A DNA stretch of 64,000 nt, from contig CAVTZJ010000004.1 of NCBI GenBank assembly GCA_963739205.1, positions 322,369 to 386,368 on the forward strand. The letters run 5' to 3'. The translations under genes were made by a program, and so were the position numbers. This DNA comes from an uncultured Pseudomonadota bacterium. Its GTDB lineage: Bacteria; Pseudomonadota; Gammaproteobacteria; Burkholderiales; SG8-39. How positions within the stretch are numbered: position 1 is the first letter of the stretch; each line of letters opens with the position of its first letter. The notes under the pieces were generated by a model. The model did no database searches. It saw nothing but the letters and a program-made list of their open reading frames with translations, and was not told where the DNA came from. Shown piece after piece: positions 21,812-23,153 of this stretch.

Positions 21812-21852
21812 CGTCCGTCCCCCTCCTCCGACGCCACGGCGTCCGGCACCCC

Positions 21853-21881
21853 AAAAAAAAAGGTACCCCGAAGGGTACCTT
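21853..21881 (-). terminator. Intrinsic terminator downstream of the pilin genes
   Basis: The minus-strand RNA is AAGGUACCC-UUCG-GGGUACCUU followed by a U run (nine Ts in the DNA). That is a 9-bp stem with a UUCG tetraloop. It begins 28 nt after the pilin stop. Confidence 0.9.
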
Positions 21882-21908
21882 GTCGAGCGAACCTACTACG
21901 CTAGGCGA

Positions 21909-22394
21909 TTACGGTATCGTCGCGCGGCAGGAGCCGGGCAGGTATTTGAGCGGCACGGGGTTGGTCGTCCCAGGTCCGCATTTCCAGCCCCACAGCTGCT
22001 GGCTCTGGCCGGCCGTATACACCGCTGGCGTGGCGGCGTCCTGCATCGGTTCCAGCGCCAGGACCGAGCTGTTAACCACTGTGCTGATGTTCTGCACAGT
22101 AGCCTGCACCAACCCGTTACCGTCGGTGTGCATCCCAAGAATGTACTTCGTCTCCTGCGACGGGGTCAGGATCTCGCAGCCCCAGCCGTCCGCAGTCGGC
22201 GCCGGGGTCGGACCGGACTGGTACACCTCGGTGATCGACGTACGGCAGGCGCTCAGAGCAAGGATCGCTTCCGACAACTTCGCCCGGATGGTGTAGTCCT
22301 GGTATGCCGGCAGCGCAACCGCGGCCAGAATACCGATGATCGCCACCACGATCATCAGTTCGATCAGCGTAAAGCCCTTCTGCAGGTGTTTCAT
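21909..22394 (-). CDS. pilA: Type IVa pilin (PilA-like), 161-aa precursor
   Basis: MKHLQKG|FTLIELMIVVAIIGILAAVALPAYQDY is a class III signal peptide. Four Cys residues. C-terminal WKCG...PLKYLPGSC loop. Confidence 0.92.
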   Translation of the reverse strand: MKHLQKGFTLIELMIVVAIIGILAAVALPAYQDYTIRAKLSEAILALSACRTSITEVYQSGPTPAPTADGWGCEILTPSQETKYILGMHTDGNGLVQATVQNISTVVNSSVLALEPMQDAATPAVYTAGQSQQLWGWKCGPGTTNPVPLKYLPGSCRATIP

Positions 22395-22457
22395 TCGGTA
22401 CTCCTTGTCGCGTTCAAAAGTTTTGGCCAGCAGTGCGGCCTGACCTGCCTGCATACC

Positions 22458-22473
22458 AGCAACCATCGTGCCA
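22458..22473 (-). promoter_or_regulatory. Sigma54 (RpoN) -24/-12 promoter for the downstream pilin gene
   Basis: The minus strand reads TGGCAC-GATGG-TTGCT, a perfect match to TGGCAC-N5-TTGCW. It lies ~65 nt upstream of the ATG. Confidence 0.8.
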
Positions 22474-22622
22474 AGCGCCCAAATCAGGCCGAGGGCGCCG
22501 AGTGCATGCAAAAAATCACGCTGGAAGGTGCACTTCGTGCAGAAGTGCATGGTCGCGAATCGCGCCGAGCAACGGCTCTTGTCCCATCCCCGTCCGTCCA
22601 TGCCAAATTCGGTCACTTCGTG

Positions 22623-23093
22623 TCACCCGCGGCACGATGCCGGAAGGTACTTCAACGGGATCGTAGTGCCGGTCGCGCCGCACCTCCATCCGTAGAGGGA
22701 CTGGCTCTCACCGGGGACGAAGACCGCGTCGGTCGAGGCGTCCTGCAGCGGCCTAAGCGTCACGAATCGGCCATCGACTGCCGCGCTGATGCTCCGCACG
22801 GTGGCCGTCACCACGCCGTTTGCGTCGGTGGTGACAGACGCCACGTACTTCGTTCCCTGCGACGCGTTAATCTCGCAGCCCCAGCCGTTGGGTCCCGGCG
22901 CGTCCAGCGAGCCTGTGTAATACACCTCGCTGATCGGTGTGCGGCACCCGGCCAGGCTGAGCATGACCTCAGACATTTTCGCGCGGATCGTATAGTCCTC
23001 GTAGGCGGGCAATCCGATCGCGGCGAGAATGCCGATGATCGCGACGACGATCATCAGTTCGATCAACGTGAACCCTTTTTCCAGCGATCCCAT
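22623..23093 (-). CDS. pilA: Type IVa pilin (PilA-like) paralogue, 156-aa precursor
   Basis: MGSLEKG|FTLIELMIVVAIIGILAAIGLPAYEDY. Same four-Cys layout as the neighbouring pilin. Confidence 0.92.
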   Translation of the reverse strand: MGSLEKGFTLIELMIVVAIIGILAAIGLPAYEDYTIRAKMSEVMLSLAGCRTPISEVYYTGSLDAPGPNGWGCEINASQGTKYVASVTTDANGVVTATVRSISAAVDGRFVTLRPLQDASTDAVFVPGESQSLYGWRCGATGTTIPLKYLPASCRG

Positions 23094-23137
23094 CTCTCAT
23101 CCCCTCATGCGCCTCAGATCGTGCACGAAAGGACCTC

Positions 23138-23153
23138 TGCAATCATCATGCCA
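23138..23153 (-). promoter_or_regulatory. Sigma54 (RpoN) -24/-12 promoter for the upstream pilin gene
   Basis: The minus strand reads TGGCAT-GATGA-TTGCA, ~45 nt upstream of the ATG. RBS GAGGGGA follows. Confidence 0.8.

Follow-up and report, generated by a model that had tools for sequence, protein, structure and literature searches.

Glycosylation of pilin shapes pilus assembly, the evasion of phages and predators and the surface properties of the cell, and to our knowledge two classes of enzyme, TfpO/PglL and TfpW, are known to carry it out in Gram-negative bacteria. In group I Pseudomonas aeruginosa the modification gene tfpO (pilO) lies directly downstream of pilA, and strain 1244 is said to make a major transcript of pilA alone together with a minor one that spans pilA and pilO, a pattern with the attenuation logic proposed below. 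The same position, directly downstream of a pilin gene, is taken by a putative modification gene in the locus described here, which lies in a 64,000-nucleotide stretch of contig CAVTZJ010000004.1 from an uncultured bacterium of the Burkholderiales that lives in soil or wetland (the whole stretch is referred to below as the window). Two type IVa pilin genes, pilA1 and pilA2, are followed there by genes for a GT2 family glycosyltransferase (GT2), three GT-C-like glycosyltransferases (GT-C 1, GT-C 2 and GT-C 3), methyltransferase 1, a GtrA family protein and methyltransferase 2, in that order; this set of downstream genes, already proposed in an initial annotation of the window, is confirmed by domain matches. 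The reading that we favour, with a probability of roughly 0.6, is that the locus constitutes a pilin-allele cassette whose lipid-carrier-dependent, three-component periplasmic module is expressed through leakage of a terminator and modifies the pilin to which it is linked; we infer both the glycosylation of the pilin and the partial termination. New here are the TMEM260-type enzyme, the strict linkage to one pilin subtype and the conservation of the terminator.

The linkage of pilin, terminator hairpin and GT2 was followed through related metagenome and metagenome-assembled genome (MAG) loci from Burkholderiales (denoted by L-numbers), a tblastn map of which took in 89 loci. Starting from the gene for the YfhO-like GT-C 1, relatives were collected by a homologue search, context look-ups and a metagenome scan with alignment, followed by the tblastn map. 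With the exception of L077, all loci with a GT2 orthologue (76–95% identity) and enough upstream DNA contain the succession of pilin, the same hairpin and GT2, and the connection between pilin and GT2 that had been drawn from the window therefore goes beyond a local accident, the pilin subtype, the hairpin and GT2 occurring together in about 45 related loci (44 hairpins matched by a regular expression, plus a variant with a 6-nt loop in L093). An intact pilin gene lies upstream of 30 of the 32 hairpins that have at least 560 nt of upstream sequence, the other two cases being a frameshifted gene in L024 and one detected by tblastn only. The frameshifted pilin gene of L024 (8168–8584), which lies upstream of GT2, is a pseudogene unless the contig was misassembled. 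Among the mapped loci, no insertions were found at the pilin–GT2 junction. Insertions were seen at two other places. Between the upstream HD-GYP gene and the pilin, relatives can have GT41-TPR genes or a gene for a protein of 991 aa with a Spermine_synth domain; and GT2 can be separated from the gene that follows by a GT41-TPR gene or by a GT2 gene with additional TPR and methyltransferase domains.

The same association was recovered from three different starting points. On the GT-C side, L006, L009 and L010 were positive for it. On the side of the ATPase gene that lies upstream of the pilins, L090 has pilin, hairpin and GT2, together with a gene for a GT2-GtrA fusion, a TMEM260-like gene and one for a 642-aa GT-C, and is devoid of the YfhO-like gene. 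L091 keeps the cluster of signalling, ATPase and HD-GYP genes with a pilin of another subtype, and the GT2/GT-C module is absent; this pilin (11930–12355) has 141 aa, a single C-terminal disulfide and no extra loop, and it is followed by a different terminator and flanked by GT41-TPR genes. On the pilin side, where 2,011 homologues of the globular domain were obtained, four contexts were read (L094–L097), and all four contain pilin, GT2_TM_C, a variable gene, GT2-GtrA, TMEM260_N and a GT-C of approximately 640 aa. The conserved core thus comprises the pilin subtype, the hairpin, GT2 with its C-terminal transmembrane domain, the GT2-GtrA fusion, the TMEM260-like GT-C and the approximately 640-aa GT-C; variable between loci are methyltransferases, GtrA, DUF2079, WbqC, sulfotransferases and the YfhO-like GT-C. 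Several candidate counter-examples were considered and set aside. L008, once a new centre had been chosen on its contig (L093), proved to contain the full pilin–GT2–TMEM260 core 8 kb away; in L007 and L025 a YfhO-like gene stands alone beside a sugar-modification operon; and the homologues of GT-C 2 in L004 and L005, which are without a pilin, are too distant (28–30% identity) to bear on linkage.

The pilin subtype to which the module is tied is defined by an extra disulfide loop, CRTSITEVYQSG...WGCE, present in addition to the usual C-terminal disulfide and described by the motif C-RTSITEVYQSG-(9–10 variable residues)-GCE; in PilA2 it reads CRTSITEVYQSG-PTPAPTADGW-GCE. The globular parts of the pilins are 52–99% identical among relatives. 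The initial annotation had pointed to a Pro/Thr-rich stretch, SGPTPAPTADG, which the translations place at residues 60–70 of the PilA2 precursor, with TGSLDAPGPNG at the corresponding place in PilA1, and had singled out Thr63 and Thr67 for mutation. The orthologue alignment speaks against that choice: neither is conserved, roughly one orthologue in two having Ser or Thr at the Thr63 position and Thr67 being confined to the window, and in many orthologues PAGLIGANG replaces the Pro/Thr stretch. The residues of the subtype-specific loop that are invariant among orthologues are T52, S53, T55 and S60. Because both pilins carry the loop, PilA1 and PilA2 are both candidate substrates as judged from their sequences, and the suggestion that only one of the two might be modified is not supported. 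It may be asked whether the module instead carries out protein O-glycosylation mainly of other periplasmic or surface proteins (minor pilins, PilY1 or a wider range of glycoproteins), with the major pilin as at most one target of many. Relatives of TMEM260, PMT and TMTC do modify defined sets of proteins, and the pilin has no conserved Ser/Thr-rich tract, but the linkage is to the major-pilin gene and its subtype, not to the minor-pilin cluster some 50–60 kb away, and the loop does have invariant Ser and Thr residues; we consider this explanation quite unlikely.

The best candidate for a pilin O-glycosyltransferase is GT-C 2. Its sequence matches that of human TMEM260 (PDB 9rql) with a phmmer E-value of 1.2e-22 over residues 12–443 at approximately 25–30% identity, so that the initial proposal that a GT-C protein glycosylates pilin is strengthened to the extent that one of them is homologous to a proven protein O-mannosyltransferase. 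More specifically, D41 of GT-C 2 aligns with the catalytic D52 of TMEM260, and the HPPGYPL motif is conserved; an acidic DDX motif in loop 1, E40-D41-D42, is invariant or nearly so in 21 orthologues. In TMEM260 a mutation of D52 has been tested, and D52 superimposes on the catalytic D77 of Pmt1 (PMC10214176). An AlphaFold2 model of GT-C 2 built from the 21 orthologues (predicted local distance difference test (pLDDT) score 86.6, predicted template modelling score 0.86) combines a transmembrane module of the GT-C type with a small alpha/beta domain and, at the C-terminus, eight helices (534–687). In Foldseek searches the whole model matched ArnT, PglB, AglB, STT3, Pmt4 and Aft enzymes, and the C-terminal helices aligned with TPR proteins. 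The TMEM260-like family comprises 12,043 representative clusters at E <= 1e-3, and we know of no substrate that has been assigned to a bacterial TMEM260/DUF2723 member.

An alternative that has to be weighed against these findings is that the target of the module is not a protein but an envelope glycan (lipopolysaccharide core, lipid A, exopolysaccharide or lipoglycan), which it would build or decorate, and that pilin is not its substrate, the adjacency to the pilin gene stemming from a variable island of surface-structure genes or from sigma-54 co-regulation. Such a role would suit the resemblance of GT-C 1 to YfhO, a teichoic acid glycosylator, the weak likeness of GT-C 3 to ArnT and GT87/PimE, and a convergent gene arm (a GT4 and polytopic proteins) that resembles polysaccharide genes; the glycosylation genes of the neighbourhood also change between loci (GT41-TPR, sulfotransferases, WbqC, DUF2079). 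It accords less well with the strict tie of the module to one pilin subtype and its absence beside the other subtype in the same cluster, with a pilin–hairpin–GT2 junction that stays intact while other junctions gain insertions, and with the homology of the core GT-C to TMEM260 and its possession of a TPR-like, protein-binding domain. We therefore regard an envelope-glycan role as unlikely.

How the module would be expressed is suggested by the DNA between the pilins and GT2. The claim that two sigma-54 pilin promoters are the only promoter-like elements upstream of GT2 holds good: the consensus TGGCAY-N5-TTGCW has exactly two matches in the 64 kb, each upstream of a pilin (0.07 expected by chance). 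The two sites have GG-N10-GC spacing and precede the codon for Gly in the GFTLIE motif by 77 and 96 nt, and 27 of 29 relatives likewise have the element in front of their pilin genes. A PilR-type enhancer-binding protein was not seen among the annotated window genes, for which no dedicated search was made. The 5' untranslated region (UTR) of pilA2 (window 22395–22457, and in relatives), downstream of the promoter, opens with a conserved CAGGTC(R)GG, after which most relatives have a short stem-loop, which may be an mRNA-stabilizing 5' hairpin. The spacer between pilA2 and GT2 (21812–21908) is 97 nt long, as first described, with the GT2 ATG at 21811, and the UUCG hairpin, the U tract and the strong ribosome-binding site are borne out. 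The hairpin, AAGGUACCC-UUCG-GGGUACCUU (21881–21860), has a 9-bp stem that runs into nine T residues (21861–21853); it lies 28 nt past the pilA2 stop, and GT2 starts 41 nt past the T tract. It is the sole strong terminator-like site in 7800–25500 and unique within the 64 kb, and in agreement with the initial annotation a simple scan of 7800–25500, the spacer included, found no sigma-70-like −35/−10 pair. When the RNA of the whole spacer was folded the z-score was near 0, the local hairpin alone standing out.

In relatives the hairpin follows every pilin copy. Its stem, GGTACCC/GGGTACC, is almost invariant over the approximately 45 loci, the changes being one double compensatory exchange (L029) and two G.U variants, whereas the flanking intergenic DNA is not conserved; the loops are TTCG, TCCG, TTCA, TTCT, CCCA, TTCGC and TTCGTC. 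Because the stem is conserved beyond what a terminator requires, it may bind a protein or an RNase, or may reflect the exchange of cassettes. The distance from the T tract to the GT2 start is 22–44 nt in the loci of relatives, which leaves no space for a promoter past the terminator, and GT2 must therefore be transcribed from upstream of the hairpin. As to RNA, a 628-nt soil metatranscriptome contig from a close relative of L016 runs from the pilin 3' UTR through the hairpin and the T tract into 550 nt of GT2; this contig, the only one that crosses the hairpin, begins exactly at the CTTAGCTTCA motif after the pilin stop. Contigs from RNA libraries cover the whole cluster of relatives at a low and patchy level, and four further runs yielded fragments only. 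The matches are to relatives at 85–97% identity, the window's own organism being absent from the runs, and the N-terminal region of the pilin is swamped by pilins of other organisms. The RNA data are compatible with terminator read-through, a step that we infer. The motif CTTAGCTTCA(A/T) is itself found between pilin stop and hairpin in most relatives (L016 712–730); the window has CCTAGCGTAGTAGGTTCGC in its place (21882–21908).

The hairpin could also be a complete terminator or an mRNA-stabilizing 3' end, with the GT2 operon served by its own promoter in the 3' coding region or 3' UTR of pilA2; this alternative concerns the read-through only. A 9-bp GC-rich stem with a UUCG loop and U9 does resemble a very efficient terminator, and both the beginning of the sole hairpin-crossing contig at a conserved motif just past the pilin stop and the similar contig depths of pilin body and GT2 could be explained in this way. 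A start upstream of the hairpin would, however, still require read-through, and no sigma-70- or sigma-54-like site is present there; a promoter after the terminator is excluded by the short distance from T tract to GT2 start, and the ends of metatranscriptome unitigs are not transcript ends. Independent transcription of the operon is quite unlikely in our judgement.

The first enzyme of the module is probably well described as a polyprenyl-phosphate sugar synthase, because GT2 matches DPMS, ArnC and GtrB as well as AglJ and PpgS. Its top PDB match is Pyrococcus DPMS (5mlz), with further matches to ArnC and GtrB (sll0501); of the NCBIfam models, AglJ (8e-36) and PpgS were both matched below cutoff, and PF26629 (GT2_TM_C) was recorded on GT2 orthologues. 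GT-C 1, which is encoded next to GT2, is an accessory, mobile member as seen from locus comparison: the YfhO-like gene is absent in L090, L095 and L096, and we call it mobile because it stands alone in L007 and L025 and on the convergent arm in L093. L081 and L082 each contain five tandem YfhO-like paralogues, 34–38% identical to GT-C 1. GT-C 3 is, by contrast, a core member, its equivalent lying after the TMEM260-like gene in all relatives; it is probably a glycan extender. Its AlphaFold2 model is of moderate quality (pLDDT 70.9) and gave weak GT-C matches to STT3, ALG12, ArnT and PimE. A PDB sequence search with GT-C 1 and GT-C 3 returned no matches, and none of the GT-Cs has an NCBIfam equivalog. 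A gene for the GT2-GtrA fusion is present in L006, L009, L010, L090, L093, L095 and L097, and in most relatives it lies between the YfhO-like and TMEM260-like genes. In the window this place is taken by a 150-nt gap, at which the L009 protein gave a weak tblastn match (18323–18421; 45% identity over 40 aa, E 0.11), and the window's sub-lineage (with L001, L002 and L013) has lost the fusion; the window operon therefore has one lipid-sugar synthase.

Our working model of the cassette is as follows. Most sigma-54-dependent transcripts would stop at the hairpin and a minority would read through, so that the operon of approximately 9.4 kb is expressed at a low level relative to pilin. The DPM-synthase/AglJ-like GT2 would load a hexose, for which mannose is the best guess by analogy, onto undecaprenyl phosphate; the sugar may receive methyl groups from the two methyltransferases and would be flipped to the periplasm with the help of GtrA. 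There, the TMEM260-like GT-C, with Asp41 as its predicted catalytic residue, would recognize its substrate via the C-terminal TPR-like domain and attach the sugar to Ser or Thr residues in the periplasmic part of the pilin; the approximately 640-aa GT-C and the accessory YfhO-like GT-C would extend or branch the glycan, and the glycosylated pilin would then be assembled into the pilus. A wider and more tentative proposal, to which we give somewhat less than an even chance, is that bacterial TMEM260/DUF2723 GT-Cs include dedicated pilin O-glycosyltransferases that form a third class, placing a hexose (probably mannose, possibly methylated) on the folded, disulfide-looped pilin, where it is then extended, and that the hairpin is a calibrated attenuator of the ratio of pilin to enzyme.

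A number of points weigh against the cassette reading. In L077, a close relative (GT2 87% and YfhO-like protein 90% identical) and the single exception to the adjacency of pilin and GT2, the GT2 gene is translationally coupled to another upstream open reading frame (ORF), there being no hairpin within 67 nt; the GT2 ATG overlaps the TGA of this ORF, which ends ...LFDRGLHVVWRLAHAAGPA (L077 1–70). The linkage is, moreover, seen within one uncultured Burkholderiales clade (ATPase 81–99% identical), and shared ancestry therefore contributes to the synteny. In related GT-C families (YfhO, ArnT, GT87) the usual acceptors are lipids or polymers, not proteins, and the window lineage is without the second synthase, GT2-GtrA, that is a core part elsewhere. 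As regards expression, contig depth was approximately 10 for the pilin body vs 9 for GT2, so that the attenuation expected of a leaky terminator is not visible, in contigs that are strandless, of unreliable depth and possibly affected by DNA carry-over.

The closest records to the window are MAG contigs whose proteins are 90–96% identical to those of the window, and the features of the locus are listed in Table 1. On the minus strand, read from high to low coordinates, a signalling block (FHA, CHASE2-cyclase, a class-II phosphodiesterase-like protein and a cyclic nucleotide-binding rhodanese protein) is followed by genes for a GAF-MshEN-T2SSE ATPase and a GAF-HD-GYP protein and then by pilA1 and pilA2; the G+C content of the 64-kb window is 66%. 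The slot between the HD-GYP gene and the pilin is empty in the window and variable in relatives (L044 5085–8060; L093 3340–7009; L092 13412–20027; L091 9329–17526), which have there either the gene for the 991-aa Spermine_synth membrane protein or OGT-like GT41-TPR genes, one to three in number, accompanied by a methyltransferase gene and an ORF of 111–124 aa. The operon itself is tightly packed, with intergenic gaps from GT2 through methyltransferase 2 of −4, 150, −1, −89, 6 and −49 nt, in order. The convergent arm may be part of the same glycan pathway; its GT4 and membrane protein are syntenic in L001, L002, L009, L024, L048 and L053 according to the tblastn map. Methyltransferase 2 (stop at 12427) and the final gene of the arm (stop at 12435) share 9 nt at their 3' ends, and no terminator separates the two.

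Table 1. Features of the pilin and glycosyltransferase locus, with positions in the window
Feature	Position	Strand	Evidence
Sigma-54 type promoter of pilA1, TGGCATGATGATTGCA	23138..23153	-	Consensus match; element kept in relatives
pilA1, type IVa pilin, 156 aa, leader MGSLEKG, subtype loop C...GWGCE	22623..23093	-	Pfam Pilin 6e-14, N_methyl 4.5e-8
Sigma-54 type promoter of pilA2, TGGCACGATGGTTGCT	22458..22473	-	Consensus match; element kept in relatives
pilA2, type IVa pilin, 161 aa, GT2-proximal copy, stop TAA 21911-21909	21909..22394	-	Pfam Pilin and N_methyl
Intrinsic-terminator hairpin with T9 tract, proposed attenuator	21853..21881	-	Terminator scan; conserved in relatives
Shine-Dalgarno-like GGAGGAGGGGG of GT2	21819..21829	-	Direct reading; 7 nt before ATG
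GT2, putative polyprenyl-phosphate sugar synthase with C-terminal transmembrane domain (DPM-synthase/AglJ/ArnC/GtrB-like)	20663..21811	-	Pfam Glycos_transf_2 (PF00535) 8.7e-25
GT-C 1, YfhO-like, 757 aa	18393..20666	-	Weak Pfam YfhO match; start overlaps GT2 stop by 4 nt
150-nt gap, probable GT2-GtrA relic	18243..18392	-	tblastn of L009 protein
GT-C 2, TMEM260/DUF2723-like, C-terminal TPR-like domain	16170..18242	-	PF11028 93.1 bits (cutoff 24.2)
GT-C 3, 648 aa, weakly GT87/PMT_2/ArnT-like, C-terminal alpha/beta domain	14224..16170	-	Pfam GT87 1.4e-5
S-adenosylmethionine-dependent methyltransferase 1	13524..14312	-	Pfam Methyltransf_23/11
GtrA-family small membrane protein, putative lipid-sugar flippase	13122..13517	-	PF04138 5.7e-18
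S-adenosylmethionine-dependent methyltransferase 2, final gene of operon	12427..13170	-	Pfam Methyltransf_11/25
Convergent glycosylation arm	7909..12435	+	Pfam and NCBIfam matches
Arm: polytopic protein	7909-9399	+	
Arm: GT4	9539-10729	+	
Arm: polytopic LA_3751-like putative glycosyltransferase	10726-12435	+	

If the cassette acts as proposed, it would add a third enzyme class to those that glycosylate pilin, provide the first substrate for a bacterial homologue of TMEM260, a gene linked to human disease, and bring O-mannosylation-like chemistry to the pili of abundant soil Burkholderiales. It would also be a natural example of fixed-ratio expression by a leaky terminator, and the module is a possible tool for glycoengineering.

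Several described systems invite comparison with the cassette. In mycobacteria, protein O-mannosylation involves a PMT initiator and the GT87 enzyme PimE as extender, both using polyprenyl-phosphate-mannose donors, and by analogy this pair is a plausible model for GT-C 2 and GT-C 3, the GT87 match being weak; the mycobacterial system differs in having a GT39 enzyme in place of a TMEM260-like one and in being Sec-coupled and general, whereas the present one is a pilin-linked Gram-negative cassette. Human TMEM260, the O-mannosyltransferase for IPT domains, shares with GT-C 2 a homologous GT-C module, the catalytic Asp and a C-terminal TPR-like domain, the differences being the bacterial carrier lipid and the putative sugar of the window system. 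The GtrA/GtrB/GtrC and CsbB-YfhO-GtcA systems are alike in that the triad of GT2 synthase, GtrA and GT-C is complete in one operon, but the known systems of this type modify O-antigen or teichoic acids, whereas here the triad is tied to a pilin and includes a TMEM260-type enzyme. TfpO and Neisseria PglL are Wzy_C-type enzymes that transfer preassembled oligosaccharides en bloc from undecaprenyl diphosphate, and a Pfam search of the cluster proteins found no Wzy_C, PglL or O-antigen-ligase domain.

The closest likeness is to the pilin-arabinosylating TfpW of P. aeruginosa/P. paraeruginosa group IV (PilA-TfpW-TfpX with PsPA7_6245-6251). Like GT-C 2, TfpW is a GT-C enzyme with approximately 11 transmembrane helices, in which the first periplasmic loop bears an acidic DDX motif and the C-terminus forms a TPR domain in the periplasm; it is encoded past the major pilin gene, in a cassette specific to the pilin allele, and it relies on a polyprenyl-phosphate monosaccharide donor and a GtrA-like helper. 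There are also differences from TfpW. By its published motif, YX6PFX7P in periplasmic loop 4, with which the comparison was made, it is distinct from the window enzyme, a member of the TMEM260/DUF2723 family: a regular-expression search of the five polytopic proteins found no copy, a loose YX6PX5P being present in GT-C 2 and GT-C 3. The donor would here come from a DPMS/AglJ-like GT2 of hexose type and not be D-arabinofuranose (D-Araf), and general domain scans of the cluster proteins revealed no domains of the D-Araf genes (UbiA/DPPR synthase, DprE1, DprE2). TfpW alone polymerizes and transfers, whereas two or three GT-Cs and methyltransferases are present here; and the pilin-adjacent gene here is GT2, the TMEM260-like GT-C lying two to three genes further on. 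The cassette would thus work like the TfpW system and yet stand outside the TfpW family, because both its enzyme family and its donor pathway differ.

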